Below, one piece after another: positions 6,861 to 47,523 of a stretch of DNA of 64,000 nucleotides. The notes beneath the pieces are model-generated. The model was not told where the DNA came from and did not search any database. It saw nothing but the letters and a program-made list of their open reading frames with translations. Source of the stretch: an uncultured Lachnospiraceae bacterium (GTDB taxonomy: Bacteria; Bacillota; Clostridia; Lachnospirales; Lachnospiraceae); NCBI GenBank assembly GCA_948989975.1, contig CARHSH010000001.1:18906-82905 (forward strand), in the 5' to 3' direction. Numbering within the stretch: position 1 is the first letter of the stretch; the number at the start of each line of letters is the position of its first letter. The position numbers were made by a program, and so were the translations under genes.

Positions 6861-7910
6861 ATGAGAAGTTCGTATCACAAAGACGATGTTTGTCTGCTTT
6901 TAAAAGATATTACGGGATTAGTGCAGCCCCAGCCGACAGATGAGCGGGAAAAACTGATTCAGGCAGGGCGCCATTATTGTGAAATGCTGCCAATCGAATA
7001 TGTGCCGACGGCAGAGTATATGGAAGCGTACCATGCGGCGTTAGAGCATTATGCAAAACCTACGGCGCGGGCAGTCGGGAATCTCGCGGATAAAATTATG
7101 CAGGCAAGGGGAGAAAAGACGGCGCTTGTGTCGTTGGCAAGAGCTGGGATTCCGGCTGGGATTCTTTTAAAATGGTATATTCGTTTTAAATACGGCGTGG
7201 ATTTGCCGCATTATTCAGTTTCCATTATACGGGGTAAAGGAATTGATGACAATGCAATGCAGTATTTGCTGAAACGGCATTTGCCAGAGCAGCTTTTGTT
7301 TGTAGACGGGTGGATTGGCAAGGGCGCGATTTTAAAAGAACTGCAGAAAGACATGGCGGCTTACCGCGGCGTTTCGCCTGAAATTGCCACACTTTCCGAT
7401 CCGGCAAATGTGACAGGGCTGTGTGGGACGCATCGGGATATTTTAATTCCGAGCTCTTGTTTAAATTGTACGGTTTCCGGTCTTATCAGCAGAACATTTT
7501 TGCGGGAAGACGTCATAGGAAAAGCGGATTTCCATGGCGCGGTTTATTATGAGGAATATCGGGATATGGATTTGTCCTATTCGTTTCTACATGCCATTGA
7601 AGCGGAATTTGAGAAGGATTGTAAGACCGATGACTTTTTTGTGGAAGGGTTTGGCTATGAGGAAGCGTGGGAGGTGGCAAGGGAATTTCAGATAGATGAC
7701 ATAAATTTAGTGAAGCCGGGAATTGGGGAAACGACAAGAGTCCTGCTCCGGCGGGCGCCTTTTAAAATCTTATTGGATAAACGGTATCAAAAAGATCCGT
7801 CACTGGCGCACATTTTACGTCTTGCAGAGGAAAAAGGCGTGCCAGTGGAGTTCTATCCGCTGAAGCATTATAAGGCCTGCGGAATCATAAAAAAAATGAC
7901 GGATTTATAG
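6861..7910 (+). CDS. PRTase-fold / StiP-like protein of the Ter-linked module
   Basis: A LLFVDGWIGKGAI segment resembles a degenerate PRPP loop. It is translationally adjacent to the PRTase gene. Confidence 0.35.
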   Translation: MRSSYHKDDVCLLLKDITGLVQPQPTDEREKLIQAGRHYCEMLPIEYVPTAEYMEAYHAALEHYAKPTARAVGNLADKIMQARGEKTALVSLARAGIPAGILLKWYIRFKYGVDLPHYSVSIIRGKGIDDNAMQYLLKRHLPEQLLFVDGWIGKGAILKELQKDMAAYRGVSPEIATLSDPANVTGLCGTHRDILIPSSCLNCTVSGLISRTFLREDVIGKADFHGAVYYEEYRDMDLSYSFLHAIEAEFEKDCKTDDFFVEGFGYEEAWEVAREFQIDDINLVKPGIGETTRVLLRRAPFKILLDKRYQKDPSLAHILRLAEEKGVPVEFYPLKHYKACGIIKKMTDL

Positions 7911-31823: not shown

Positions 31824-33392
31824 ATGAGAATCACCAATAACATGATGATTAATAATACATCGATGAATATCAACAACAATAAAATAAATTTTATGTTCAC
31901 CAATACGCAGATGTCATCGCAAAAGAAAATATCCCGTCCTTCGGACGATCCAGTTATTGCAATCCGGTCTTTGCGGCTTCGTTCTTCTTTGAGCCAGATT
32001 AATCAGTATTGCAAGAAAAACATTCCGGATGCGTGGACGTGGCTTGAGACGACGGAAACGGCATTGACAAATATGAATAAAATTTTGACGGACGTCAAAA
32101 CCCAGTGCAATACAGGAACAAACTCCTACTTAACGCCGGAAGACAGGGATACGATATTAAAGAGCCTGACAGCGTTGCAAAAACAGCTCTATAGTGAAGG
32201 AAATTCCGACAATACGGGACGGAATATCTTTACCGGATATAAAACCAATTCCCAGCTTGCCTTTATGGAAGATGAGAAAGAAACTTCATATGAGATTACG
32301 CAGAAATTTACATATAAAGACATTAATGAATACACCTATTACAGCGGCAATATTGATATGCCGAAAACCGTGACGGAAGTCCAGAATACGGCAAATATCG
32401 GCGACATTGCCAAGGACAGCCATGAGCGTATCCGCTTAGCGTATGACAAGATAGAGGATATGGAAAGCTTCAGCTATAAAACAGACGCCGGAACAGTGAC
32501 GTTTACCAAAAACAATGCCGGCGGCTACGATGCAGTAGATGAAAATGGAAATCCTGTAGCGAATGCGCCAAACGTTACCGTATATGATTCGGAAGAAGAT
32601 TGGGAAGATGCGTTGAACCGGAAAACGATTGGCGATAATGACATTATTATCGTGAAAAATACGGGAGACGTCGTGCTGGGCAAGGAATTAAGCAACGGAT
32701 TAAAGACGAACAAAGCTTCCTTTGAAATAAACTATAAAAAGACAGGGTTTGAAAAAGGAGAGCTGCGTCCGGAATATTATTATAATTGTACGGACGTTAC
32801 GGCAAGCAACCCGAAACCGATTGTCTACACCAAGTATAGGGAAGACGGCTCGAAGGTTTACGAAGACATTAATTACACCATCGCAGTAAACCAGACGTTA
32901 AAAGTCAATATGCACGCAGATGAATTGTTTGACATGAATATTTATCAGGACGTGACAGAGCTGATAGACGCTGTGCAAAATGCGATTGATGCGCATGAAA
33001 AAGTAGACAAATTAAAAGAGATGAAAAACGAAGCGCAGTATGTTGATTGTCAGGAAGAAATCCAACAATGGATAGATGCGGCGCAGAAAGAAGCGGATTA
33101 TGCGGATCACCGCCTGACCGAGCTTTACAGCGCCGGAATCGGTAAATTTGACAAGTATATGGATACGCTTAATAGAGCGATAACGGAAGTTGGCGCAAGG
33201 GGCGAACAGCTTACAATGACGGAAACGAGAATTGGCAACCAGCAGCTTACCGTAGAAGACTTAAAATCCACAAATGAAGATGAGGAAATTTCCAATATTA
33301 TTATAAATTACACTGCGGCATATAACGCGTACCAAGCATCGCTTATGGCGGCGTCGAAAATTGAGAAGCAGACATTATTGGATTATATTTAA
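31824..33392 (+). CDS. flgL: Flagellar hook-associated protein 3 FlgL (enlarged, 522 aa)
   Basis: MRITNNMM... N-terminus, KKISRPSDDPVIAIRSLRLRSSL motif, flagellin-like C-terminus. Confidence 0.7.
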   Translation: MRITNNMMINNTSMNINNNKINFMFTNTQMSSQKKISRPSDDPVIAIRSLRLRSSLSQINQYCKKNIPDAWTWLETTETALTNMNKILTDVKTQCNTGTNSYLTPEDRDTILKSLTALQKQLYSEGNSDNTGRNIFTGYKTNSQLAFMEDEKETSYEITQKFTYKDINEYTYYSGNIDMPKTVTEVQNTANIGDIAKDSHERIRLAYDKIEDMESFSYKTDAGTVTFTKNNAGGYDAVDENGNPVANAPNVTVYDSEEDWEDALNRKTIGDNDIIIVKNTGDVVLGKELSNGLKTNKASFEINYKKTGFEKGELRPEYYYNCTDVTASNPKPIVYTKYREDGSKVYEDINYTIAVNQTLKVNMHADELFDMNIYQDVTELIDAVQNAIDAHEKVDKLKEMKNEAQYVDCQEEIQQWIDAAQKEADYADHRLTELYSAGIGKFDKYMDTLNRAITEVGARGEQLTMTETRIGNQQLTVEDLKSTNEDEEISNIIINYTAAYNAYQASLMAASKIEKQTLLDYI

Positions 33393-33413
33393 TATAAGAA
33401 ATGAGGGTACAAA

Positions 33414-33863
33414 ATGAAAGCGGATACAAGAATGTTTGGGAAAATTGAGATAGAGGATTCCAAAATAATCACATTAGAACAAGGCATTATCGGATTTCCT
33501 GACATAAAGAATTTTGCGTTGATTTTTGATTCAGACAAAGGGGAGGAAACGGCCATTAAATGGTTTCAGTCTATGGACGATCCGGTGTTTGCCATGCCAG
33601 TCGTAGATCCTTTTCTGTTTGTGGAAGATTATGCGCCGACAATTAGTGACGAGCTTTGCAATTCACTGGGCGGGCTGACCGGCGAAAATTCATTTGTGCT
33701 TACGACTGTAACAGTACCCACTGACATAAAGAAAATTTCCATCAATTTAAAAGCGCCGATTATTATCAATACGGATAATAATCAGGCAGTGCAGTTGATT
33801 GTAGAGGAGGATTATCCCGTAAAATATCAGATTTATGACAAGCTGAAAAAGGAAGGGGAATAG
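33414..33863 (+). CDS. fliW: Flagellar assembly factor FliW
   Basis: 149 aa; FliW-type sequence (GIIGFPDIKNFALI...). Confidence 0.8.
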   Translation: MKADTRMFGKIEIEDSKIITLEQGIIGFPDIKNFALIFDSDKGEETAIKWFQSMDDPVFAMPVVDPFLFVEDYAPTISDELCNSLGGLTGENSFVLTTVTVPTDIKKISINLKAPIIINTDNNQAVQLIVEEDYPVKYQIYDKLKKEGE

Positions 33864-33865
33864 AA

Positions 33866-34081
33866 ATGCTCGCATTGACAAGGCGGAAAGGCGAAGCGCT
33901 GATTATCAACAATAACGTAGAGATTGACATATTAGAGATTCGCGGAGATCAGGTTAAAATCGGCATTTCTGCGCCAAAGGAAGTCCCGATTTACCGCAAA
34001 GAGGTATATTTGCAGATACAAAACGAAAATAAGCAGTCGACAAATACAGATGGAATGGCGGCATTGAAAAAATTATTCTAA
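33866..34081 (+). CDS. csrA: Carbon storage regulator CsrA
   Basis: MLALTRRKGEALIINNNVEIDILEIRGDQVKIGISAPKEVPIYRKEVY; 71 aa. Confidence 0.9.
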   Translation: MLALTRRKGEALIINNNVEIDILEIRGDQVKIGISAPKEVPIYRKEVYLQIQNENKQSTNTDGMAALKKLF

Positions 34082-34148
34082 TAATTTATTGGAAATGTAC
34101 CGATATAGTATACAATAAACAATTTAAAACCATACGGAGGTGGTTGCA

Positions 34149-34580
34149 ATGGCAATAGAAGCAGCATTAATTACGGCCGTGGCAAATCAGGGAGGAAAGC
34201 CGGGACCGAAAGCGCCGCAGAAGAAAGTGGAAATTGCGGAAAAAAGCAATACTGCAGCTATGGCGAAAAGTGAAAAGCGTGTAGCGGACACAAACGCTGC
34301 GGCGCAAAAAGACGAGGGTTCCCCAATACGGATTCAAGAAGAAAATATGCTTCCGCAGGCAGGGACGGAGAGCTTGAAAAAAGCTTTAGAGGAGCTAAAC
34401 AAGAACGTGCATAATTCTGAGATTGCTTTCGGAATCCATGACGCAACCCATCGTGTAACAATCAAAATTATTGACAAAGACACCAAAAAAGTCCTTAAAG
34501 AATACCCGCCTGAGAAAACGCTTGACATGATAGCGAAGGTATGGGAAATGGCAGGGCTGATGGTAGACGAAAAAGGTTAG
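34149..34580 (+). CDS. flaG: FlaG-family flagellar protein
   Basis: C-terminal IAFGIHDATHRVTIKIIDKDTKKVLKEYPPEK is typical of FlaG. The ATG at 34149 follows GGAGG; the track's GTG at 34140 lies within the RBS. Confidence 0.7.
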   Translation: MAIEAALITAVANQGGKPGPKAPQKKVEIAEKSNTAAMAKSEKRVADTNAAAQKDEGSPIRIQEENMLPQAGTESLKKALEELNKNVHNSEIAFGIHDATHRVTIKIIDKDTKKVLKEYPPEKTLDMIAKVWEMAGLMVDEKG

Positions 34581-34592
34581 GAGGAGAAAAAA

Positions 34593-36854
34593 ATGCCAAT
34601 TAGAATCACAGGAATGAATTCAGGATTAGATACAGAAGCGTTAGTTCAGGAACTTGTATCCGCATACCGCAAGAAATCTGAGAAATACACAAAAGCGCAG
34701 ACAAAGCTTTCATGGAAACAAGATGCGTGGAAAGATCTGAATACAAAAATCAATAAATTTTATGGCAATATCAGAAGCTTGAAATATTCATCTGCGTATA
34801 ACTCGAAAAAAGCGACAGTTTCTAATTCAAATAAAGCATCCGTTTCAGTAAAAAGCACAGTCGCTACAGGCACATATTCGTTAAAAATTAACAGTGTGGC
34901 GAAATCCGGTTATCTGACTGGCGCAAAACTGAACAATAATATTAATGAAAACAGTTCCATGGCAGAGTTAGGCTATACGGGCACTGACGGCAGAATCAGC
35001 GTGACAAGCGGCGGCAAGACGACAGATATTGCTATAACCGGCCAGACAAAAGTTTCTGATTTTATTAAATCTTTAAACGATGCCGGAGTAAATGCAAGTT
35101 TTGACTCTGCAAATCATAGAATTTTTATCAGCGCAAAGAAATCCGGCAAAGAAAATGACTTTACATTGACTGGCACGAACTTAAACGGCAATAACGCTTT
35201 ATCAAAATTAGGCTTAAGCGTTGACAGTCAGGCAGAAATGAATATTTATAAAGAATATGCAAAGTATGCGAAAAACACTGCCGGAGGAAGTTATTTTGAG
35301 ATTGATCCCGCGACGGGCGAGATTAAGTTCGATGCAAATGGAAAAGCAATTACTAACGGACAGTACAGCCCGGCAGAGACGCAGAAAAATATTGAAGACA
35401 TAAAAGCGCTGCTTTCCAGCAGTTCAGCGGCAGTTACGAAGGCAAATGTGCAGATTAGTTATGCGAAAGCATATCGGACTGTTCAAGATGTGGATAAGAC
35501 GTCAATGTCGGCGGCTGATAAAGAGCTCTTAAAAGAACTGGGTGGAAAAGGCGATCTGAGCAATGTTTATGTTGGCGCAGATAATACTGTTTATGAAAAG
35601 CAATCAGACGGCACATATGTAAAGAAAGCGGCCGATGGCACAGCGGTTACAGTTACGCAGGCTGAATTAGATGCGGCAGGTGGGGCGGTTTCCGGCAGCA
35701 GCAGGCTTTCCGCTTTAGAGACGGCGGCAGGCGTAACAGGCGCAGAATATGCAGCCGCTCATGCTACGTTAGATCAGTATTCCAGTATGCAGGCAGATTA
35801 TGATTTGAATGATATAGCTGTGGAATACGCAAATGGGACATTGGACACTTACATTGCCACAAAAGGAACAGAACTGAATACAGCGCAGGCAGTGATTAAT
35901 CAGAACAAGCTTCTGATGGAAGATTCCAGCAGCGCCGCAGTTTTCACTACGAAAGTATATAACGCTGCAAGCATTTTAGACGGGACTACAAAATTAGATC
36001 CAAATGCTGGCGCAAAACGTATCTATGGATCAGATACGGAAATTGAGTTAAATGGAGCAGTATTTACCGGAACCGGCAATGAAATCACAGTTAATGGGCT
36101 GACGATTAACGCAATGAATGTGACGGAGCCGGGAGAAACCATTTCCATCGGCGTGACGAATGATTCACAGGGAATGTATGATAAAATTAAGGGCTTCATA
36201 AAAGAATACAATGAAATAATCAATGAAATGACGTCATTGTTTAATGCAGATTCAGCAAAAGGCTATGAACCGCTGACAAAAGATGAAAAAGAAGCAATGA
36301 CGGATAAAGAAATCGAGGAATGGGAGAAAAAGATTAAAGGTTCCATTCTTAGGAGAGATGAAAGCGTAAATCAGATGATGAGCGTAATGAAGAATGCCAT
36401 GTTTAAGACTTATACGGTAAATGGCAAGAATTATTCACTTTCCAGTTTTGGGATTTCTACAATAGGAATCTTAAATGCAACGAAAAATCAAGAAAATGCG
36501 TTCCATATTGACGGAGATTCTGAGGATGCGGAAGTGTCAGGCAAGGAAGATAAGCTTTTGGCGGCATTGCAGGACGATCCGGATTCCGTAGCAGATTTTA
36601 TGATGCAGCTTGCGACGGGCTTATACGATGCAATCGGTACAAAGATGAGTTCTTCCACATTGAGCAGTTTCGGCGTTGTATACAACGACAAAGAAATGGC
36701 TAGGGAATATAGCGATTATACAAAGACAATCAGCAAATGGGAAGAAAAATTAAAAGATATTGAAGAATCTTACTACAAAAAGTTTGCCGCAATGGAATCT
36801 GCGTTGGCAAAATTACAGAGCCAGCAGTCTTCATTGGCGAATCTGTTTGCATAA
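34593..36854 (+). CDS. fliD: Flagellar filament cap protein FliD (enlarged, 753 aa)
   Basis: MPIRITGMNSGLDTEALVQELVSAYR N-terminus; coiled-coil C-terminus. Confidence 0.8.
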   Translation: MPIRITGMNSGLDTEALVQELVSAYRKKSEKYTKAQTKLSWKQDAWKDLNTKINKFYGNIRSLKYSSAYNSKKATVSNSNKASVSVKSTVATGTYSLKINSVAKSGYLTGAKLNNNINENSSMAELGYTGTDGRISVTSGGKTTDIAITGQTKVSDFIKSLNDAGVNASFDSANHRIFISAKKSGKENDFTLTGTNLNGNNALSKLGLSVDSQAEMNIYKEYAKYAKNTAGGSYFEIDPATGEIKFDANGKAITNGQYSPAETQKNIEDIKALLSSSSAAVTKANVQISYAKAYRTVQDVDKTSMSAADKELLKELGGKGDLSNVYVGADNTVYEKQSDGTYVKKAADGTAVTVTQAELDAAGGAVSGSSRLSALETAAGVTGAEYAAAHATLDQYSSMQADYDLNDIAVEYANGTLDTYIATKGTELNTAQAVINQNKLLMEDSSSAAVFTTKVYNAASILDGTTKLDPNAGAKRIYGSDTEIELNGAVFTGTGNEITVNGLTINAMNVTEPGETISIGVTNDSQGMYDKIKGFIKEYNEIINEMTSLFNADSAKGYEPLTKDEKEAMTDKEIEEWEKKIKGSILRRDESVNQMMSVMKNAMFKTYTVNGKNYSLSSFGISTIGILNATKNQENAFHIDGDSEDAEVSGKEDKLLAALQDDPDSVADFMMQLATGLYDAIGTKMSSSTLSSFGVVYNDKEMAREYSDYTKTISKWEEKLKDIEESYYKKFAAMESALAKLQSQQSSLANLFA

Positions 36855-36884
36855 CAGAATGATGTCATTGGACAGGGAGGTTAA

Positions 36885-37283
36885 ATGATGACAAATACCC
36901 ATGGATATACAGCATATGCGAATAACAGGATTATGACAGCTTCACCGGCGGAATTGACTTTAATGCTATACGAAGGCGCGATTAAATTCTGCAACATTGC
37001 GATTGCTGCTATTGAGAAAAGGGATATAGAAAAAGCGCATAACAATATTGTAAAAGTGGAAAATATTATTACTGAGTTTCAATCTACGTTGGATCACAAA
37101 TATCCGGTTGCGAAAGATTTCGATAATGTCTACCGCTATTTGCAAGAGAGGCTTTTAGAAGCGAATTTAAAAAAAGACAAAGAAATCTTAGAAGAAATTC
37201 TAGGGCATCTCCGTACAATGCGTGATACATGGAAAGAAATTATGCAGAAAGCAAATGTAGACGGACGCAAGCATGTATCCTAA
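36885..37283 (+). CDS. fliS: Flagellin-specific export chaperone FliS
   Basis: 132 aa; sequence typical of FliS. Confidence 0.8.
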   Translation: MMTNTHGYTAYANNRIMTASPAELTLMLYEGAIKFCNIAIAAIEKRDIEKAHNNIVKVENIITEFQSTLDHKYPVAKDFDNVYRYLQERLLEANLKKDKEILEEILGHLRTMRDTWKEIMQKANVDGRKHVS

Positions 37284-37324
37284 TGAAATAGACGCAGTTT
37301 TGGCGTTATAGACAGGAGAATGGA

Positions 37325-37801
37325 ATGGAAGCGGATTATATACGGATTATGGCTGAAAGCCTTGAAAAAAAGAAAGATATTTTAGATCGGATCATCGAAT
37401 TAAACCGACAGCAGAAATTTCTATTGCAGGATCCGAATCTTTCGCCGGAAGATTTTGAGCAGAACATGAAATTTAAAGGTGAACTGATAGAACAGTTGAA
37501 TTTTCTGGACGATGGATTTGAGGAGTTGTTTGGGCGTGTGCGTGATGCGTTGAATACGAACCGGCAGCAATATGCAGATGAGATTACGCAGATTCAGGGG
37601 CTGATTCGGGATATTATGACGCGGACTACTGAAATTCAGGCTCAAGAAGCCAGAAACCATGAAAGCGCTGTCAAAAAATTTTCAACTGTACGCAGTCAGG
37701 TGCGCGGCGTTCGCAACAGTCAGAAAGTCGTGAAACAATATTACGATAATATGATGAGCCATCGGAGCGCAGAAGCGCAGACGATTGACAATAAAAAATA
37801 A
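37325..37801 (+). CDS. FliT-like flagellar chaperone (helical, 158 aa)
   Basis: Its position after fliS matches the fliD-fliS-fliT order. It is helical and charged. Confidence 0.4.
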   Translation: MEADYIRIMAESLEKKKDILDRIIELNRQQKFLLQDPNLSPEDFEQNMKFKGELIEQLNFLDDGFEELFGRVRDALNTNRQQYADEITQIQGLIRDIMTRTTEIQAQEARNHESAVKKFSTVRSQVRGVRNSQKVVKQYYDNMMSHRSAEAQTIDNKK

Positions 37802-37803
37802 AA

Positions 37804-37846
37804 AGCTCCCGGATGCGGTTTGCCGTATCTGGGAGTTCTTTTATTT
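37804..37846. terminator. Bidirectional terminator between the late flagellar operon and the convergent GT gene
   Basis: GCTCCCGGATGCGG-TTTG-CCGTATCTGGGAGTTCTTTTATTT. Confidence 0.6.
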
Positions 37847-37939
37847 CTTACAGAATAAATATAATAAGGGAATACAGAGATTTATTGTGACATATTTGCT
37901 TCTATTTCGCTGTAAATCATAGAAGCGTAACAGGTTTCA

Positions 37940-39469
37940 TTAGAGTTTAAGATTTGTCATGCTTAATAATAAATTTCCCATGATTGCCCTGCATTGTATC
38001 GAAAATAATTCGGGAATATGTTCAAGGTTTTCTGTATCTTTACAATGCAAAGAATGTTCAATATAAGGAGAGAGTTCCAATCCGTCCAAATGATTTGAAA
38101 ATTGCTGTTGGAATCTTCTGAAACATTCAGACAGTAAAGCAATTTCCTTTTGGGAAATATGCTCCGTTTGACATAAATCATCAGATGCCAATACCGACAT
38201 TCGATTTAGTTGGTAAATCGCATCTAAAATAAGCGTCTGTTTATCAGGGTATTCAATTTGAAAATCCAGTTCCTCACCTTCCCCGTCTTGGATAAAAGAA
38301 ACATGGAATGTAGTTTCCAGTTCTCTTAACATATCATGCGCGCGGGAATGCCATGTATGGTTCTGTATTTTTTTGTGTCCGTTTTCGGCAATTTGCATCG
38401 CAGTTTGTGGGTTTGCCAGCAAATCTTTGAGGCGGTTTGCAAGTGAATCCAAATCTTTTAAAGAATAAATGATTATATTTTCATTATTCTCAAAATTTTC
38501 GACGATATATTTGCTTTCGTCTGTGACAGCAACTGCTTTGCTTAACATGGCGGAAGCAATTCTTTCCTGAAAGGCGTCTTTAAACCACGGCATTATATTT
38601 AATGAAAGTTTTGCGTTTGCCAAAGCTTTGCAGGCGGCATAAGGGCCTCCTTTATGGATCGTCAGGTTTTGTTTACAGTCAAAGTTAAAATTTTCCCAGC
38701 CATTTCCAAAAACGTCTATTTTTAAGCCGGCGGATAAAAGAGCGCAGAGCGCTTTTTCCCGATAGTAAAAGCGGGCATAAAAATCCACTTTTGTAAAATC
38801 CTCCACTAATTCTTCAAACTCAGCATCACTGACAGAGACATTGTATTTTTTTAAAATTCTGGCAAGGCATTCCGGCAATGTGTATTGTGGGTTTGTAATG
38901 CTGTCTTCCATTAGATCCTCTGCAAATTTTGTTAGTGTGGCGTTGTCTTTGAATTGGTTAAGCAGGTCATTTTTATAGACCTCCGGACTTGTGTAGGTTC
39001 CCGTAAAGATAATGTCTGTCTGGCGGTTTTCATAGGGCGCGCATTCGGGATAAGAGCTTCCCGACAAAGGAATGAAAGCCGCATGTTTTACGCTGGGATA
39101 ATAGCGGAGGATATAGTCGCGGAAATGTTTGTCACAGGCGAATATGACGGTTCGTTCATCCGCTTGGGCATATAGAGTTTTAAAAGCGGAAGGCGGATCG
39201 CAAAGATACGTCACATAGATTGTTTCAGGCGGCAGGCATTTTGTCACATTCCATGAACTGAGGATGCCGTTTACGTCGATTACTGCGTCGAATTGATAAG
39301 TTGAAATAATGTGGTTATATAAAGTGGGCTGTGCGAGAGACCATGCATCTAATACACATGTGTTACAGCCGAATTTTCGCATGGAGCAGGCCCATTCGTC
39401 GATATATCTGTTTAGTGAATTATAACGGGAAACAGTTTTTACTAATAGAATGTTCTTTCGTTTATCCAT
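37940..39469 (-). CDS. CgeB-like / GT-B-fold glycosyltransferase-like protein (flagellar-locus associated)
   Basis: 509 aa; C-terminal half resembles the GT1 C-terminal fold; RBS AAAGGAGAA. Confidence 0.3.
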   Translation of the reverse strand: MDKRKNILLVKTVSRYNSLNRYIDEWACSMRKFGCNTCVLDAWSLAQPTLYNHIISTYQFDAVIDVNGILSSWNVTKCLPPETIYVTYLCDPPSAFKTLYAQADERTVIFACDKHFRDYILRYYPSVKHAAFIPLSGSSYPECAPYENRQTDIIFTGTYTSPEVYKNDLLNQFKDNATLTKFAEDLMEDSITNPQYTLPECLARILKKYNVSVSDAEFEELVEDFTKVDFYARFYYREKALCALLSAGLKIDVFGNGWENFNFDCKQNLTIHKGGPYAACKALANAKLSLNIMPWFKDAFQERIASAMLSKAVAVTDESKYIVENFENNENIIIYSLKDLDSLANRLKDLLANPQTAMQIAENGHKKIQNHTWHSRAHDMLRELETTFHVSFIQDGEGEELDFQIEYPDKQTLILDAIYQLNRMSVLASDDLCQTEHISQKEIALLSECFRRFQQQFSNHLDGLELSPYIEHSLHCKDTENLEHIPELFSIQCRAIMGNLLLSMTNLKL

Positions 39470-39585
39470 TTGAGGTTCTCCTTTTAAATTTATGAAGTAA
39501 AAAATATAAGTTCAATAGCTTCATTATAAGAAAAGAGACTAATTTGCACAAGTTGAAATTTGCTAAAAAAATTTAAAATTTAGGC

Positions 39586-39612
39586 TAAAGTTTTCCAGTA
39601 GAGGGACGATAT
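39586..39612 (+). promoter_or_regulatory. Sigma28-type promoter for flagellin 1 (TAAA-N15-GACGATAT)
   Basis: One mismatch to TAAA-N15-GCCGATAT. Confidence 0.55.
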
Positions 39613-39712
39613 ATAATGTGAGTAAACAAAAACAATATTGTTACTTACTGACACAGTTCCAAATGAAGCGTACGGTCATTGGGGATTGCGTCGTATAGCA
39701 AATCAAAATTAT

Positions 39713-39744
39713 GCAGCAAGGAAGCTGCAGTAAATTCAAGGAGG
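39713..39744 (+). promoter_or_regulatory. CsrA-binding leader elements: BS1 hairpin GCAGC-AAGGAA-GCTGC and BS2 AAGGAGG overlapping the SD
   Basis: A GGA in a hairpin loop plus a GGA in the SD, matching the B. subtilis hag CsrA-site architecture. fliW and csrA are in the same window. Confidence 0.5.
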
Positions 39745-39753
39745 AAAAATATT

Positions 39754-40866
39754 ATGGCAATGGTAGTACAGCACAACCTTACAGCAATGAACGCAAACCG
39801 TCAGTTAGGCGTTACAACAAGCGGACAGTCCAAATCAACAGAGAAATTATCCACAGGTTACAGAATTAACCGCGCAGGCGATGACGCAGCAGGATTAAAA
39901 ATCTCTGAGAAAATGAGAAGCCAGATCCGCGGATTGAACAAAGCTTCTTCCAACGCGCAGGACGGCGTATCCCTTATCCAGACAGCAGAAGGCGCATTAA
40001 ACGAAGCGCACAGCATCCTTCAGAGAATGAATGAGCTTGCAGTTCAGGGCGCAAACGACACAAACCAAGGCATCGACCGTGACGCAATCAACCAGGAGTT
40101 AAGCGCGTTGACAGAAGAGCTTGACCGTATTTCTGAAACGACACAGTTCAATAAGCAGAGCCTGTTAGACGGAAGCTTCACAGGAAAGAACCTTCAGGTA
40201 GGCGCAAACCAGAACCAGAAGATTACAATCAACATTGCGGCAATGAACGCAGTGGCAATCGGAATCAAACCGACAGGCGTTGGCGGAACATCCGGATACC
40301 TGACAACAAATGAAGTTGTTAAGAATCAGAAGGTTGGCGTTGACAATTCTGCCGCTCTTAGAGGATCCATTGGTAAATTGGCAGCATGCAATGCTCAGGT
40401 AGCTCCAATCTACTCAGCAAACGCAGCAGGCAAACCATACTTCAAGACAGCAAATGGAACAATCACAACTGATTCTTCTGTAGTAAGAGCATCTGTTGAG
40501 AACTTGGCAAAATGCGCTGCGCAGATCTTCAAAGTGGCAACAAAGGCTGCAACAACAGTCAGCACGCCAAACGTAAGGGATTACCAGCAGGCAACAGGTA
40601 CCATCACAATGGTACAGAACGCAATCAACAATGTATCCAGCCAGAGATCCGCTCTTGGCGCATTACAGAACAGATTAGAGCACACGATTGCAAACTTAGA
40701 CAACGTATCTGAGAATACACAGGCAGCAGAATCCCGTATCCGTGATACAGATATGGCTTCTGAAATGGTAGAATACAGCAAGAACAACATTCTTGCGCAG
40801 GCTGGACAGTCTATGTTAGCTCAGGCAAACCAGTCAAATCAGGGTGTATTATCATTATTACAGTAA
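39754..40866 (+). CDS. fliC: Flagellin (FliC/Hag), copy 1
   Basis: MAMVVQHNLTAMNANRQLG... flagellin N and C domains. The ATG at 39754 follows AAGGAGGAAAAA. The track ORF start at 39679 is an upstream in-frame extension. Confidence 0.9.
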   Translation: MAMVVQHNLTAMNANRQLGVTTSGQSKSTEKLSTGYRINRAGDDAAGLKISEKMRSQIRGLNKASSNAQDGVSLIQTAEGALNEAHSILQRMNELAVQGANDTNQGIDRDAINQELSALTEELDRISETTQFNKQSLLDGSFTGKNLQVGANQNQKITINIAAMNAVAIGIKPTGVGGTSGYLTTNEVVKNQKVGVDNSAALRGSIGKLAACNAQVAPIYSANAAGKPYFKTANGTITTDSSVVRASVENLAKCAAQIFKVATKAATTVSTPNVRDYQQATGTITMVQNAINNVSSQRSALGALQNRLEHTIANLDNVSENTQAAESRIRDTDMASEMVEYSKNNILAQAGQSMLAQANQSNQGVLSLLQ

Positions 40867-40883
40867 TATTGAATTATTTAATA

Positions 40884-40916
40884 AAAAGAGCCGATGGAAA
40901 TCGGCTCTTTTTTTCA
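40884..40916 (+). terminator. Terminator after flagellin 1
   Basis: GAGCCGA-TGGAAA-TCGGCTC plus T8. Confidence 0.7.
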
Positions 40917-40927
40917 TATTTTTGATA

Positions 40928-40954
40928 TAAAGTATTTTATAAAATGCCCGATAT
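40928..40954 (+). promoter_or_regulatory. Sigma28-type promoter for flagellin 2 (TAAA-N15-CCCGATAT)
   Basis: TAAAGTATTTTATAAAATGCCCGATAT. Confidence 0.6.
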
Positions 40955-41047
40955 AATAAATAGGTGACAGAAATCATGTTACTTATTAAAGAGTGGGTTT
41001 TTGAATGGAGCGTACGGCCGGAAAAAAACACTATGAATCAAAATCAT

Positions 41048-41079
41048 GCAGCAAGGAAGCTGCAGTAAATTCAAGGAGG
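41048..41079 (+). promoter_or_regulatory. CsrA-binding leader elements (BS1 hairpin plus BS2/SD) of flagellin 2
   Basis: Identical to the copy 1 leader. Confidence 0.5.
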
Positions 41080-41087
41080 AAAAAATT

Positions 41088-42200
41088 ATGGCAATGGTAG
41101 TACAGCACAACCTTACAGCAATGAACGCAAACCGTCAGTTAGGCGTTACAACAAGCGGACAGTCCAAATCAACAGAGAAATTATCCACAGGTTACAGAAT
41201 TAACCGCGCAGGCGATGACGCAGCAGGATTAAAAATCTCTGAGAAAATGAGAAGCCAGATCCGCGGATTGAACAAAGCTTCTTCCAACGCGCAGGACGGC
41301 GTATCCCTTATCCAGACAGCAGAAGGCGCATTAAACGAAGCGCACAGCATCCTTCAGAGAATGAATGAGCTTGCAGTTCAGGGCGCAAACGACACAAACC
41401 AAGGCATCGACCGTGACGCAATCAACCAGGAGTTAAGCGCGTTGACAGAAGAGCTTGACCGTATTTCTGAAACGACACAGTTCAATAAGCAGAGCCTGTT
41501 AGACGGAAGCTTCACAGGAAAGAACCTTCAGGTAGGCGCAAACCAGAACCAGAAGATTACAATCAACATTGCGGCAATGAACGCAGTGGCAATCGGAATC
41601 AAACCGACAGGCGTTGGCGGAACATCCGGATACCTGACAACAAATGAAGTTGTTAAGAATCAGAAGGTTGGCGTTGACAATTCTGCCGCTCTTAGAGGAT
41701 CCATTGGTAAATTGGCAGCATGCAATGCTCAGGTAGCTCCAATCTACTCAGCAAACGCAGCAGGCAAACCATACTTCAAGACAGCAAATGGAACAATCAC
41801 AACTGATTCTTCTGTAGTAAGAGCATCTGTTGAGAACTTGGCAAAATGCGCTGCGCAGATCTTCAAAGTGGCAACAAAGGCTGCAACAACAGTCAGCACG
41901 CCAAACGTAAGGGATTACCAGCAGGCAACAGGTACCATCACAATGGTACAGAACGCAATCAACAATGTATCCAGCCAGAGATCCGCTCTTGGCGCATTAC
42001 AGAACAGATTAGAGCACACGATTGCAAACTTAGACAACGTATCTGAGAATACACAGGCAGCAGAATCCCGTATCCGTGATACAGATATGGCTTCTGAAAT
42101 GGTAGAATACAGCAAGAACAACATTCTTGCGCAGGCTGGACAGTCTATGTTAGCTCAGGCAAACCAGTCAAATCAGGGTGTATTATCATTGTTACAGTAA
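41088..42200 (+). CDS. fliC: Flagellin (FliC/Hag), copy 2, identical to copy 1
   Basis: Protein identical to copy 1 from MAMVVQ onward. The duplicated unit is ~1334 bp. Confidence 0.9.
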   Translation: MAMVVQHNLTAMNANRQLGVTTSGQSKSTEKLSTGYRINRAGDDAAGLKISEKMRSQIRGLNKASSNAQDGVSLIQTAEGALNEAHSILQRMNELAVQGANDTNQGIDRDAINQELSALTEELDRISETTQFNKQSLLDGSFTGKNLQVGANQNQKITINIAAMNAVAIGIKPTGVGGTSGYLTTNEVVKNQKVGVDNSAALRGSIGKLAACNAQVAPIYSANAAGKPYFKTANGTITTDSSVVRASVENLAKCAAQIFKVATKAATTVSTPNVRDYQQATGTITMVQNAINNVSSQRSALGALQNRLEHTIANLDNVSENTQAAESRIRDTDMASEMVEYSKNNILAQAGQSMLAQANQSNQGVLSLLQ

Positions 42201-42217
42201 TATTGAATTATTTAATA

Positions 42218-42250
42218 AAAAAGAGCCGGCGTTTGCCGGTTCTTTTTTAT
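42218..42250 (+). terminator. Terminator after flagellin 2
   Basis: GAGCCGGC-GTTT-GCCGGTTC plus T6. Confidence 0.65.
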
Positions 42251-42258
42251 ATAAAATC

Positions 42259-42392
42259 TAAAGTTTTTGTATGTATGTCCGATATATACTATAATGAAAT
42301 CAACATTTTTAAAATCTATTGTAGCAAGGAAGCTGCGCCAAATTCAGGGAGGAAAATTCATGGCATTCAAAATCTGGAATTATTTTACCTAA
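42259..42392 (+). pseudogene. Remnant of a third flagellin gene: intact sigma28 promoter (TAAA-N15-TCCGATAT), degenerate CsrA leader, and an ATG followed by a 10-codon frame
   Basis: Alignable to the flagellin leaders (gcaaggaagctgc..aaattcagggaggaaaat..atggca). The ORF collapses after MAFKIWNYFT. Confidence 0.5.
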
Positions 42393-42425
42393 GTATAATT
42401 GAACATTGAATAAGAAAAATATAGG

Positions 42426-42453
42426 TTGACAAATGTCAGCTTTTTATTATAAT
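42426..42453 (+). promoter_or_regulatory. Consensus sigmaA-type promoter (TTGACA-N16-TATAAT) upstream of the maf operon
   Basis: Perfect hexamers, read directly. Confidence 0.45.
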
Positions 42454-42491
42454 ACAAAAAAATATTGCTGGGCAATATGGAGGGGTATAGT

Positions 42492-42833
42492 ATGGAGGAA
42501 TTTTCAAATTTATTGTGGCACAATATTGAAATTGTTCAGTGCATTTGTAATAAAATCGAGAATCAGGAAGCGTACATTGAGGATATTCGGGGATACCTTC
42601 CTTCTCTTAATCAAATGATTACATCAATATTTACAAATATGCAGCAAGGGCAAATTTCTTTGGAATTGAATCAAGGCTTTATTATTCAGGCGCTAAATGA
42701 TATTCTATATGGAATAGAAAATGAAGATTCTGTATTTTTGCTTGATGTATTGCGATATGGGTTATTAGAAATTTATGGATACATAAGTAGTGAACTGCAA
42801 AGTGAGGGCTGTTATGAATCAGTTAATATATAA
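42492..42833 (+). CDS. Hypothetical small protein upstream of and overlapping maf
   Basis: ATG at 42492 after GGAGGGG; 113 aa; no recognisable motif. Confidence 0.35.
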   Translation: MEEFSNLLWHNIEIVQCICNKIENQEAYIEDIRGYLPSLNQMITSIFTNMQQGQISLELNQGFIIQALNDILYGIENEDSVFLLDVLRYGLLEIYGYISSELQSEGCYESVNI

Positions 42834-44712
42834 AAAAAATCTGGAGGCGTTAAATGCGAAATATCCTATATGGGCGGCTCTTATAGACGGGGTAAAACGT
42901 AAAAAACGAAATTTCAATGTTGAAGCAGAGCAGAGTTTCATGGGAGAAACTATTTTGAAAGTAACTCAAGATGGGAAAATGCGTTACTTAAATGGAAAAT
43001 ATGCTCCTTCGGCAGTAGTGGAACGTTGGTTTGAAAAACAGGGAAAAATAGAAGAATACGCGCCAATTGTGATAATAGGCATTTCAAATGGAGAACATAT
43101 ACGACAAATTATAGAACGCTCCCCAAAGACTTCTAATATTTTAATTTATGAGCCATCTTTTGAATTATTCCGCAGGGCGATGCAAGAAGTGGATTTAACA
43201 TTTCTCTTTGAGATGGATATTCCGGTAGGGATTATTGTTGAGGGATTAAATGAAGATGAGTTAGAAGCTTTCCTTTATTTATTTATATCTTATGACAATA
43301 TGGCTTTTCTTCGGTGGTATATTTCAGGGAATTATCAGGAATTATTTCCAAAAGAAGTGGAAGAATTTGTAGGACGTTTAAAGAATCATGTGTCACAAAT
43401 CCATATTGGCTGGAATACAAAATTACGTTATACAAATGTCAGGGCAGTAAATGTATTTGTCAATCTGCCATATTTAGCAGATGGATACAGCATTCGGGAA
43501 TTGTATGGAATGCTTCCGGAAGACGTTCCGGTTATTGTCGTTTCAGCAGGCCCATCTTTAAATAAAAACATTATGGAATTGAAAAAAGCAGTCGGGAAAG
43601 CCTGTATTATTTCAACAGATACTGCGATAAAGCCTCTCTTAAATGCAGGAATCGTGCCGAATTTCTTTATTATTATAGATGGGTTAAAGCCGGAAGTGCT
43701 ATTTCAACATAAGGATATATCTAAAGTTCCTATGGTGACTATGACGGCGGTTTCCACAGAGCCGATGTCATGCCATAAAGGGAAAAAATTCTTTTATGGC
43801 GCGGAGTCTGCATTTGAAGATGAACTTACGGGAGATATAAAGAGGAGCCGTGACGAAGACAGTGACAGAGTGATACCGTTTCTTGTAACTGGCGGTTCTG
43901 TTGCGACTTCGGCATATGCGCTGGGTTTAAATATGGGAGCTAAGACAGTGATATTAGTGGGTCAGGATCTTGCAATGACCGGGAATAAAACGCATGCAGA
44001 CGGTACATTTCAGGCGCAGATGGATCAGATTGACAAAAATAGCGGCGAATACTTTGAAGTGGAAGCTATAGATGGCGGCAAGGTTTTGACGAGACTTGAT
44101 TTTGATATGTACCGTAAATGGTTTGAAGACCATTTTAAGCAGTGGAATCATGTCACAGTCGTAGATGCGACAGAAGGCGGAGCATTAATTCATGGAACGA
44201 AAGTAATGACTTTAAAAAAGGCAGTTCAAAAATATTGTGTGCATGAATTTAATGTAAAGTGGCATACGGATCGCTGCAAAAAATTATTTCAAGATGAACA
44301 GCGGGAAGTTGTGTTGGATTATTTTGCAAATTCCCTAAAAAAATTACAGGAAGTGAAGAAAAAAGCGACAGAAGGGATTCGTTTCTATGAACGTCTGGAG
44401 AAGATGGCGAAAAAAAGCTCGGTATCAGATCAGGAGCTTGGAAAGGCTTTGAAAAAAATCAAGAAATTAAATCATTATATGGAAACTGACTATATGGCGC
44501 GCACTGTTATGGATAGTTTAGATGGTCTAAATTTTACGTTAAGGCCGCTTGCTTATCAATTAAGAGAGGATAAACGGAGCGAGCTTTTAGATGTGGCTAG
44601 TCAGGGAAAAGTGCTACTTTACGGGGTGGCAGTTGCAGTAGATGAAGTATCTGAGATAGCGGAAAAGACGATTGTGCAGTACGCCAATTCCAACAGGACG
44701 AAACGGAAATAA
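42814..44712 (+). CDS. maf: Motility accessory factor Maf (DUF115 / MptE-like), a putative flagellin nonulosonic/heptose glycosyltransferase
   Basis: VIVVSAGPSLNKNI...ISTDTA core typical of DUF115. It lies directly downstream of the flagellins. Confidence 0.6.
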   Translation: MNQLIYKKNLEALNAKYPIWAALIDGVKRKKRNFNVEAEQSFMGETILKVTQDGKMRYLNGKYAPSAVVERWFEKQGKIEEYAPIVIIGISNGEHIRQIIERSPKTSNILIYEPSFELFRRAMQEVDLTFLFEMDIPVGIIVEGLNEDELEAFLYLFISYDNMAFLRWYISGNYQELFPKEVEEFVGRLKNHVSQIHIGWNTKLRYTNVRAVNVFVNLPYLADGYSIRELYGMLPEDVPVIVVSAGPSLNKNIMELKKAVGKACIISTDTAIKPLLNAGIVPNFFIIIDGLKPEVLFQHKDISKVPMVTMTAVSTEPMSCHKGKKFFYGAESAFEDELTGDIKRSRDEDSDRVIPFLVTGGSVATSAYALGLNMGAKTVILVGQDLAMTGNKTHADGTFQAQMDQIDKNSGEYFEVEAIDGGKVLTRLDFDMYRKWFEDHFKQWNHVTVVDATEGGALIHGTKVMTLKKAVQKYCVHEFNVKWHTDRCKKLFQDEQREVVLDYFANSLKKLQEVKKKATEGIRFYERLEKMAKKSSVSDQELGKALKKIKKLNHYMETDYMARTVMDSLDGLNFTLRPLAYQLREDKRSELLDVASQGKVLLYGVAVAVDEVSEIAEKTIVQYANSNRTKRK

Positions 44713-44792
44713 TAGGATCACATGATACAGGGCATTACAAAAAGCAGCGGGCGGCTGAAAATCAAATTTCAGCCGCCCGCGTTATGTATCTT

Positions 44793-45776
44793 TTATTTTA
44801 GGTACTTGAACCAATCTTCCGTGGCATCGACAATGGTATCCGGCGTCCATACAGGAGCTTTCCGCCAATAGTCAATGTTTTCAAGGACTTTGCTAACGCC
44901 ATCTTCAAATGAGATTTTAGGCTCCCATCCCAGAACATCATGAATTTTTGAAGTGTCAGCAAATGTGCAGTCGGGTTCTCCGGGTCTTTTTGGGATATTT
45001 GTGATTTCACCGCCCAATAGTTCACACAGCCTGTTTATAGAGTAGGTTCCTCCGCTTCCAACGTTGAATGTGTCTTGTTTGATATCCGACATAGCGGCTG
45101 TATAAAAAGCGTCGACAATATCTGTTACATATGTAAAGTCCCTTGTTTGAGTTCCATCTCCTACAACGGTAAATGGTTTGTTGGCTAGTTTTTGGGCTAA
45201 AAATACGCCAAATACAGCCCCATAAGTGCCGGAAGTCCTCGATCTTGTGCCATATACGTTGAATAGTCTCAAAGTAATCACAGGAAGACCGTAGACTTGC
45301 CCCCAGTGCAAGATGGTTTCTTCCCCTAATCTTTTTGTAAGGGCATAAGGATACTGTGGCCTGATTTCGGCTGTTTCTCTGGTAGGGTATTGGTCAGGAA
45401 TGCCATAACAGGAAGATGAAGCGGCATAAAGCAGCTTTTTGATATTTGTGTTTTTCGCGCATTCCACTACATTAAACGTTCCTAGGACATTAGAGGAGTA
45501 ATAATCTTGAGGCCTCTGAATAGATGGAACGATGTCGGCTAATGCCGCAAAGTGGAAAATGTAGTCCACATCTTTAAAAATAGGCTGGATTTCCTCCTTA
45601 TTTCGAATGTCCATTTGATAGATGCTGAGATTTTTGTGGCCTTTGAGGTGATCTAGGTTTTCTAATCTTCCAGTGCTTAAATTATCAATTACGCGGACGT
45701 CATGCCCTTCAGATAAAAGCCTATCCACCATATGGGAGCCAATAAATCCGCACCCGCCTGTAACCAGTGACGTCAT
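44793..45776 (-). CDS. NAD-dependent SDR epimerase/dehydratase (nucleotide-sugar)
   Basis: TGGCGFIGSH Rossmann motif, YALTK catalytic dyad, VIDNLSTG. Confidence 0.7.
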   Translation of the reverse strand: MTSLVTGGCGFIGSHMVDRLLSEGHDVRVIDNLSTGRLENLDHLKGHKNLSIYQMDIRNKEEIQPIFKDVDYIFHFAALADIVPSIQRPQDYYSSNVLGTFNVVECAKNTNIKKLLYAASSSCYGIPDQYPTRETAEIRPQYPYALTKRLGEETILHWGQVYGLPVITLRLFNVYGTRSRTSGTYGAVFGVFLAQKLANKPFTVVGDGTQTRDFTYVTDIVDAFYTAAMSDIKQDTFNVGSGGTYSINRLCELLGGEITNIPKRPGEPDCTFADTSKIHDVLGWEPKISFEDGVSKVLENIDYWRKAPVWTPDTIVDATEDWFKYLK

Positions 45777-46914: not shown

Positions 46915-47523
46915 AATAATCGCTTCTTTCTGATAATTATTTATAATGTATTAGTATATCACAGGAGTATAGCATGTAACAAGAATTTTTTGTAATGATT
47001 CCTGTTATTGATTTCTGTTATAAATAATAGAAATGGTTAGAATGAAATAATTCGTAAATGATTGTATTTAATATGTATAAAGTTAAATTAAGGATAAGCC
47101 GATAAAAAGAATAAGAGTTAAATTGCGTTTTCTATCAGCATGGAAGCTGTATTTTATTCAGGGAGGAAGAAGAAATGACGAAAAGGAAAGACATGCAGCG
47201 AAAAATTGCATGGGGGGGGAAAATCAGAATCTACTAAAAAGTGGAAAAAAATTCAAACTTTATATGGATTATCTCAAGAGACGTTAGGGGCAATTTTTTT
47301 GTTGCCTTTTTTTTGGTGTCTGCCGTTTGATCCGGTTATGGCTTGTAAAGGATATAAGTGTGTTGGGATAAGAATGGATAAGAATTGTTGGAAGGACGCC
47401 TATGTTTGAAACAAAGACAGCATGGGAAACGCAGTGAATATACTACAATTCTTTTTTTGCGTTTTATAACATTTTTTGCAACAGAAGATAATATGCCAAA
47501 ATAGCTGGGAAGAAGGAATTAAA

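Follow-up and report, generated by a model that had tools for sequence, protein, structure and literature searches.

In Bacillus subtilis, the leader of the flagellin gene hag is under the control of SigD, CsrA and FliW (PMC3720852, PMC6529632), and in Campylobacter jejuni the flaA leader is both part of an mRNA and an RNA antagonist that titrates CsrA (PMC4894983). The flagellar glycosylation genes of Clostridioides difficile depend on SigD and are apparently co-transcribed with fliC (PMC3865298), and short sigma28-driven RNAs derived from flagellar untranslated regions (UTRs) have been described in Escherichia coli and C. jejuni (PMC10578931, PMC11187230). Here we describe an element that bears on all of these, at positions 42259–42447 on the plus strand of a 64,000-nucleotide (nt) stretch of DNA from an uncultured Lachnospiraceae bacterium (GenBank assembly GCA_948989975.1, contig CARHSH010000001.1, positions 18,906 to 82,905), hereafter the window. 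On balance, we regard this element as the remnant of a flagellin gene copy that underwent internal deletion of nearly its whole coding sequence (CDS), and that would now supply a sigma28 promoter and an attenuated leader to the two genes that follow it, a hypothetical gene (hyp) and maf, which encodes a putative flagellin glycosyltransferase. Literature searches returned no paper describing a flagellin element of this kind that lacks its CDS.

Like the hag leader, the element combines a promoter of the form TAAA-N15-(G/T)CCGATAT with a GGA in a hairpin loop, a second GGA over the Shine–Dalgarno sequence (SD), and csrA and fliW nearby. It differs from hag in that the leader opens a 10-codon, unconserved open reading frame (ORF), the transcript would run into glycosylation genes, and CsrA binding is putative. 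The two GGA sites also recall the C. jejuni flaA 5′UTR, but there the leader lies within a full flagellin mRNA, whereas here the CDS is gone, the organism belongs to another phylum, and the element is known from sequence alone. The C. difficile arrangement, in which glycosylation genes 3′ of flagellin use its SigD promoter, follows the logic seen in those relatives of the window's organism that lack the element (hereafter relic-less relatives); it involves no gene remnant, whereas the window carries a promoter-bearing flagellin copy without its CDS and with a weakened terminator. The small RNAs (sRNAs) of E. coli and C. jejuni likewise are short, sigma28-dependent and UTR-derived, but they are reported to act on flagellar gene expression (by base-pairing in E. 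coli), and we propose no base-pairing target for the element in the window.

The element begins with a sigma28-type promoter (TAAA at 42259–42262, a 15-nt spacer, and TCCGATAT at 42278–42285) of the same form as both flagellin promoters in the window and as the consensus quoted for Butyrivibrio and Roseburia (PMC3720852); it fits a −35 TAAA and a −10 (G/C)CGATA(T/A) about 15–16 nt apart. The pattern TAAA-N16-SCGATA matches the window four times against 0.49 expected, and the remnant promoter was located by pairwise local alignment and pattern search, as a three-way MAFFT alignment misplaced it. Transcription from this promoter would start near 42292 and produce a leader RNA (42292–42359) with two CsrA-type sites, one in the hexaloop of the hairpin GUAGC-AAGGAA-GCUGC (42321–42336) and the other in the SD, AGGGAGG (42346–42352), which lies 7 nt 5′ of an ATG at 42360. 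Aligned locally with the region upstream of flagellin gene 2, the segment from promoter to ATG scores z = 12.8, a value reached by 0 of 1000 shuffles. The leader is ~85% identical to the proximal flagellin 5′UTR over ~50 nt, and this identity covers the positions between the motifs and continues through the start codon into ATGGCA(A). The pattern formed by the hairpin loop, its 3′ arm and the SD occurs four times in the window (0.00 expected). With a covariance model built from 20 flagellin-type leaders, a search of the 64-kb window with filters off recovered exactly four leaders: those of the two flagellin genes (74.5 and 71.2 bits), that of a second module described below (55.9 bits), and that of the element itself (54.8 bits, at 42316–42366, E ~1e-15), the next-best score being 13.5 bits. 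A preliminary description of this DNA had named the TAAA-N15 promoter, a leader alignable to the flagellin 5′UTR with AAGGAA and AGGGAGG motifs, and a retained ATG, and all three hold.

Downstream of the start codon almost nothing of the flagellin CDS is left. The ATG, formerly that of flagellin, opens a 10-codon ORF (MAFKIWNYFT, 42360–42392, stop TAA at 42390–42392). Homology to the flagellin CDS ends ~2–5 codons past the ATG and not after 10 codons, as previously claimed; the remainder of the ORF aligns with z = 0.4. The ORF that this leader would regulate is thus not a flagellin, having only ATGGCA in common with it, and a tblastn search of the relatives turned up no piece of flagellin between 42200 and 42492. 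The leader also lacks the distal part of the flagellin 5′UTR, including the GGAGCGTACGGCC block. Over 23 leaders, 93.5% of the cells of the GGA hairpin are paired, a fraction matched by 0 of 500 shuffles, and four of its six pairs show compensatory double changes; by these measures the hairpin is a real conserved RNA structure. A permissive Rfam scan of 33000–45000 found only terminator look-alikes far below gathering scores, leaving the leader without a known RNA family, and the predicted 163-nt RNA, taken as a whole, does not fold more stably than its shuffles (z = −0.02), with just two local hairpins standing out. With only two GGA sites, the element is not an RNA of the many-hairpin CsrB/RsmZ type.

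The second of these hairpins, AGGUUGAC-AAAU-GUCAGCUU followed by a U-run, closes the element at 42423–42447. It is terminator-like, with an 8-bp stem containing two G·U pairs and an interrupted U-run (UUUUUAUUAU), but at −8.9 kcal/mol it is weak compared with the true flagellin terminators of the window (−18 to −19 kcal/mol). The same difference is seen when relatives are included, the remnant hairpins ranging from −9 to −11 kcal/mol and the true flagellin terminators from −13 to −20 kcal/mol. The hairpin is probably a decayed flagellin terminator that has become leaky and terminates only in part. (Relatives are cited here by L-numbers, the labels of the loci from relatives that carry the compared genes.) In L002 and L008 the hairpin aligns with the flagellin 3′UTR and terminator of the same organism (z = 6.5 with 0 of 2000 shuffles as high, and z = 4.8 with 3 of 2000, respectively). 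A similar terminator, GAGUUGGCA...UGCCAACUC, stands directly before hyp in relic-less L017, L019, L014 and L047. Across seven sequences all 56 of 56 cells pair, with one compensatory change from C-G to U-A, and two of the pairs are G·U in all or six of the seven. Since these G·U pairs are kept, a structure in plus-strand RNA fits; a DNA operator formed by the palindrome TGACA-N-TGTCA is unlikely, as the relatives' G·U pairs would be mismatches in DNA.

Overlapping the hairpin and its T-run, and thus the old terminator, is a sigmaA-type promoter (TTGACA at 42426–42431, TATAAT at 42448–42453). It had been called perfect; its hexamers match at 12 of 12 positions, and its spacer has 16 nt instead of 17. 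In relatives this promoter is semi-conserved, with TTGGCA, TTGGTA or TTGACA separated by 15–18 nt from TATnAT-like boxes. As the sigmaA start lies downstream of the 3′ hairpin, only the upstream promoter could transcribe the hairpin, and its conserved pairing is therefore indirect evidence, with weak statistics, for transcription from the sigma28 promoter. Between the sigmaA promoter and hyp lies a small hairpin, AUAUUGC-UGG-GCAAUAU, followed by the SD of hyp, GGAGGGG (together 42462–42485), an arrangement also present in L002 and L008. This hairpin would form the 5′ end of the sigmaA transcript, where it may act as a 5′ stabilizer.

Remnant-type elements precede hyp–maf in nine or more diverged lineages of gut Lachnospiraceae, at the loci L008, L009/L030 (Eubacterium sp. 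14-2 and KK002), L011/L036, L020, L033/34, L043/44, L045/46 and L048. The parts share a common order: sigma28 promoter, GCAUGGAAGC hairpin, CAGGGAGGAAG, ATG or GTG, a short ORF, and a hairpin GUUGGCnnnnGUCAGC followed by six U. A seven-way alignment gives pairwise identities of 1.00 in the −35 box, 0.96 in the −10 box and 0.98 in both hairpin and SD, whereas the other 68 columns between the −35 box and the SD have a mean identity of 0.40. TAAAGT and CCGATA are invariant in all seven aligned elements, L002, L043, L045 and L048 have the promoter as well, and the conserved blocks span lineages whose Hyp proteins share just 50–75% identity. Every leader-bearing lineage has a start codon, with several switches between ATG and GTG, placed 5–8 nt from the SD. 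The peptides of the short ORFs range from 10 to 31 amino acids and are conserved in neither sequence nor length, which rules out a conserved micro-protein. In L045 (311–760), we observed that the former flagellin start, a GTG, is in frame with hyp with no stop between them, so that a flagellin-type ribosome-binding site could direct synthesis of a 149-amino-acid, N-terminally extended Hyp protein; several database homologues of 125–140 amino acids may be extended calls of this kind.

Features confined to this class of leaders bear on its age. CAGGGAGG occurs in all remnant leaders except that of L020 and in none of the 13 flagellin leaders compared. GGAAG is found in 6 of 10 remnant leaders (GGAAA in the element of the window and in the L043/45/48 clade) and in 0 of 13 flagellin leaders, and the distance from SD to start codon is shorter in the remnant leaders than in all 13 flagellin leaders. 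Because the remnant leaders share derived states, CAGGGAGGAAG and the shorter spacing among them, that flagellin leaders lack, these comparisons indicate one old origin. The element has also persisted where its surroundings changed. In L009/L030 it is kept with hyp–maf although no flagellin gene lies within 8 kb, and in L020 an insertion of ~0.8 kb parts it from flagellin. The L020 insertion (6903–7718) contains small ORFs, one of them AbrB/MazE-type antitoxin-like by eye. Upstream of hyp–maf in L009/L030, a cluster of sulfatase, choline kinase, nucleotidyltransferase and BCCT transporter genes replaces the flagellin genes, which hints at a phosphocholine-type modification pathway tied to the flagellin glycosylation locus. 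A metagenome scan with a remnant-specific pattern hit just two loci, of which the first belongs to the window's organism and the second is of the L009 type, and thus added no lineages.

The element occupies the place where a third tandem flagellin copy would be, after a terminator–promoter junction like that between genes 1 and 2, and it retains a sigma28 (FliA/SigD-type) promoter, the proximal 5′UTR, the start codon, a few codons and a weakened flagellin terminator. The preliminary description had called it a decayed third flagellin start region, and its place in the array and the shared leader, SD and start codon bear this out; judging from relatives, more than the start region was kept, namely the weakened terminator. 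The range given for it then, 42259–42833, contains the remnant but also takes in the whole of hyp (42492–42833); that the relic lies directly before hyp and maf (42814–44712) is confirmed. In relic-less L012, L014, L017–L019, L021–L025 and L047, flagellin and hyp are 70–115 nt apart, a space mostly taken up by a terminator, and no sigma28 match was found between them, nor is there room for a promoter. Expression of hyp–maf in these species is most simply explained by read-through from the flagellin promoter. Had the last flagellin copy then lost its CDS by deletion, this arrangement would have been preserved, and promoter and leaky terminator would therefore persist. Co-option of the relic for maf, as had been suggested, finds indirect support in its retention upstream of hyp–maf in at least nine lineages, with blocks 96–100% conserved against 40% around them, but 'inherited' fits better than 'co-opted', because, judging from relic-less relatives, hyp–maf probably always used read-through from the flagellin promoter.

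Most likely, then, the element ties the expression of the glycosylation enzymes to that of flagellin. Late in flagellar assembly, sigma28 RNA polymerase would initiate near 42292, and a fraction of the transcripts would pass the weak hairpin and U-run into hyp–maf, so that glycosyltransferase supply would rise alongside flagellin, with the sigmaA promoter over the old terminator supplying a basal level. The ancestral logic, in which hyp–maf follows a flagellin terminator and has no promoter of its own, would thereby be kept. Because the hairpin, SD and start codon are conserved, ribosome and/or CsrA binding at the leader may still matter, through stability, read-through or some CsrA titration. 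CsrA control of the leader is plausible, and this layer appears optional and not essential, since one lineage, L002–L007, has lost the leader. Gram-positive mRNAs can carry 5′ stabilizers of the STAB-SD type, in which a strong SD close to the 5′ end directs synthesis of no functional protein; unlike these, the element also has a conserved start codon and its SD overlaps a CsrA-type site, and a stabilizing effect here is hypothetical.

Several observations weigh against this account. The activity of the sigma28 promoter, its start site and the read-through are all inferred, and the perfect sigmaA promoter alone could suffice for hyp–maf expression. The 3′ hairpin of the window does not align significantly with the window's own flagellin 3′ ends (z = 1.7 and 1.4), so that support for its origin as a terminator comes solely from relatives. 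Its covariation amounts to one double change among seven sequences, a value reached by 86 of 500 shuffles, and its 5′ arm doubles as the sigmaA −35 box, a possible partial cause of its conservation. The L002–L007 lineage has neither leader nor short ORF while keeping promoter and 3′ hairpin. Anywhere from 10 to 86 nt lie between the ORF stop and the hairpin, and the ORF of the L043/45/48 clade crosses the hairpin, giving no consistent geometry for attenuation; for this reason we rejected ribosome-controlled attenuation, in which translation of the short ORF would melt the hairpin.

The window contains another remnant-type module on the plus strand, at 47078–47317, which makes the element one of two. 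It comprises a promoter (TAAA-N16-GCCGATAA, 47078–47105), the hairpin CAGC-AUGGAA-GCUG (47136–47149), an SD (47160–47166), a 20-codon ORF (47175–47237) and a terminator-like hairpin with a T-run (47286–47317), the leader model matching at 47130. It belongs to the remnant class, having CAGGGAGGAAG and, like L009 and L033, the start ATGACGAAA, and it precedes a TIGR04372 glycosyltransferase gene (2.3e-51) at 47524 that leads a radical-SAM and transketolase operon. In our scans of metagenomes and relatives we found this module just in the window's organism, and the homologous TIGR04372 glycosyltransferase operons L039–L042 have no leader and no intergenic sigma28 match. The second module may place another glycosylation operon under the same control. 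It is also conceivable, though we consider it quite unlikely, that both modules yield sigma28-dependent sRNAs that mimic the flagellin leader and antagonize CsrA, the leak at the terminator setting the share of transcripts that reaches the glycosylation genes. To our knowledge, the protein FliW is the sole CsrA antagonist known in Firmicutes; if the idea were true, these modules would be RNA antagonists of CsrA in a Firmicute, born of flagellin genes minus their CDS.

A related but unlikely explanation is that the remnant is mainly a stand-alone, sigma28-driven sRNA (~150 nt, and ~200 nt for the second copy) ending at the hairpin and U-run, a mimic of the flagellin leader that serves as a decoy for CsrA, and perhaps for ribosomes, and so tunes the FliW–CsrA–flagellin circuit, with hyp–maf transcribed from the sigmaA promoter. 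Conservation of both CsrA-type sites and of the start codon, with no conserved protein to translate, would suit such a decoy, as would the conserved terminator-like hairpin and U-run upstream of the sigmaA start, the two copies in the window that both end in such a hairpin, and the ability of the C. jejuni flaA leader to titrate CsrA (PMC4894983). Yet two GGA sites per RNA are what an mRNA target has, unlike the many sites of sponge RNAs, and the mRNAs of the two flagellin genes, which have these sites too, should greatly outnumber such an sRNA. Termination at a weak hairpin (−9 kcal/mol) with an interrupted U-run is probably partial, in the L043/45/48 clade the ORF runs across that hairpin, and it is exactly the part with the CsrA sites that L002–L007 deleted while retaining promoter and hairpin. 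In the least probable of the explanations, the element is a neutral leftover, now without function, from the decay of a tandem flagellin array, and hyp–maf is expressed solely from the sigmaA promoter. The loss of the leader in L002–L007 would fit this reading. Recombination and gene conversion among flagellin genes are frequent (the two CDS of the window differ by 1 nt), partial copies are to be expected, and the short-ORF peptides are unconserved. What debris would not explain is that the functional blocks are 96–100% conserved next to neighbors at 40% and among Hyp proteins 50–75% identical, that a start codon is kept through ATG/GTG switches in every leader-bearing lineage, that changes in the hairpin are compensatory, and that the element persists where hyp–maf has parted from flagellin.

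It is also very unlikely, in our judgment, that the element was never a flagellin gene but a sigma28 promoter and CsrA-regulated leader belonging to the glycosylation operon itself, made similar to flagellin leaders by the constraints of a common sigma factor, CsrA and the ribosome. L010, L015, L013 and L026 do have a sigma28-like promoter and/or a GGA hairpin directly before hyp with no short ORF; the remnant class departs from flagellin leaders at diagnostic positions, and the distal flagellin 5′UTR is absent. Shared constraint on motifs does not account for ~85% identity over ~50 nt that includes the positions between motifs and runs into ATGGCA(A), nor for an SD and start codon that serve no conserved protein. 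The match of the 3′ hairpin to flagellin 3′UTRs and terminators, and a position at the end of a tandem flagellin array after a flagellin-type terminator–promoter junction, likewise argue for descent from a flagellin copy whose promoter and leader would now serve hyp–maf.

The surrounding region is a late-flagellar and flagellin-glycosylation region. On the plus strand, fliW, csrA, flaG, fliD, fliS and a gene for a 158-amino-acid protein of unknown function are followed by a glycosyltransferase gene on the minus strand and the two flagellin genes; after these come the studied element, hyp, maf and ~18 kb of sugar-modification genes. fliW (33414–33863; PF02623, 4.7e-36) and csrA (33866–34081, a 71-amino-acid ORF beginning MLALTRRKGEALII... 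that is CsrA-like by eye) form a partner-switch pair that would act on the flagellin-type leaders. Flagellin gene 1 (39586–40866, CDS 39754–40866), with Flagellin_N and Flagellin_C domains, has its sigma28 promoter at 39586–39612, followed by a long 5′UTR, and its GGA hairpin and SD at 39708–39753 (leader model 71.2 bits). Flagellin gene 2 (40928–42248, CDS 41088–42200; 74.5 bits) has its promoter at 40928–40954 and its terminator at 42217–42248 (−19.1 kcal/mol); all of these genes and features are on the plus strand, both promoters having been located by pattern search. Of the 1113 nt of the CDS, a single one differs between the two genes, within a near-identical tract of ~1195 nt (39699–40893 and 41036–42228, 4 differences) that extends from the proximal leader, ~55 nt 5′ of the ATG, through the CDS and 3′UTR into the terminator stem. 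Promoters, distal leaders and terminator loops are far less similar and hold most of the 101 alignment differences. That near-identity is confined to this tract while promoters and distal leaders have diverged indicates that the copies are old and homogenized by ongoing gene conversion. The two terminators (40883–40912 and 42218–42247) share their stem architecture but differ in inner stem and loop (GCCGAU-GGAA-AUCGGC and GCCGGC-GUUU-GCCGGU). The flagellin 5′UTRs (~140 nt) carry a conserved block, AUGRAGCGUACGGYC, at 39663–39677 and 41005–41019, also present in the L008 and L011 leaders; it has no Rfam match and is absent from the remnant leaders, and in more distant relatives a CCUAGG-centered conserved block occupies a similar place.

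On the same strand, hyp encodes a 113-amino-acid protein and precedes maf in all 20 of 20 genome loci. Its 142 homologues make up a Lachnospiraceae family; none has a known function, and some show weak DUF8042 matches. An AlphaFold2 model predicts, with high confidence, a four-helix bundle (predicted local distance difference test score, pLDDT, 89.9), and a structure search of the PDB gave no significant match, with FliS appearing among weak four-helix-bundle matches only; by this model the protein may be an accessory factor associated with flagellin or Maf. The maf product matches PF01973 (MptE-like, 1.3e-34) and, weakly, Maf_flag10_N, and its match to the NCBIfam PseD domain (107.7 bits) is below the cutoff.

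The element illustrates concretely how a gene stripped of its coding part can become a regulatory element, with promoter, leader and terminator kept because the genes behind them relied on them. The lineages provide a natural comparison series, from the full module through the leader-less L002–L007 and the relic-less loci to L045, whose start codon shares the reading frame of hyp. Among the carriers, Eubacterium sp. 14-2 has been isolated in culture. On our reading, we predict that gut Lachnospiraceae couple flagellin glycosylation to the late flagellar program, through sigma28 and possibly CsrA–FliW. In the gut, flagellins from these bacteria are a major target of the immune system, and a coupling of glycosylation to flagellin could affect how flagellin is presented to the host.

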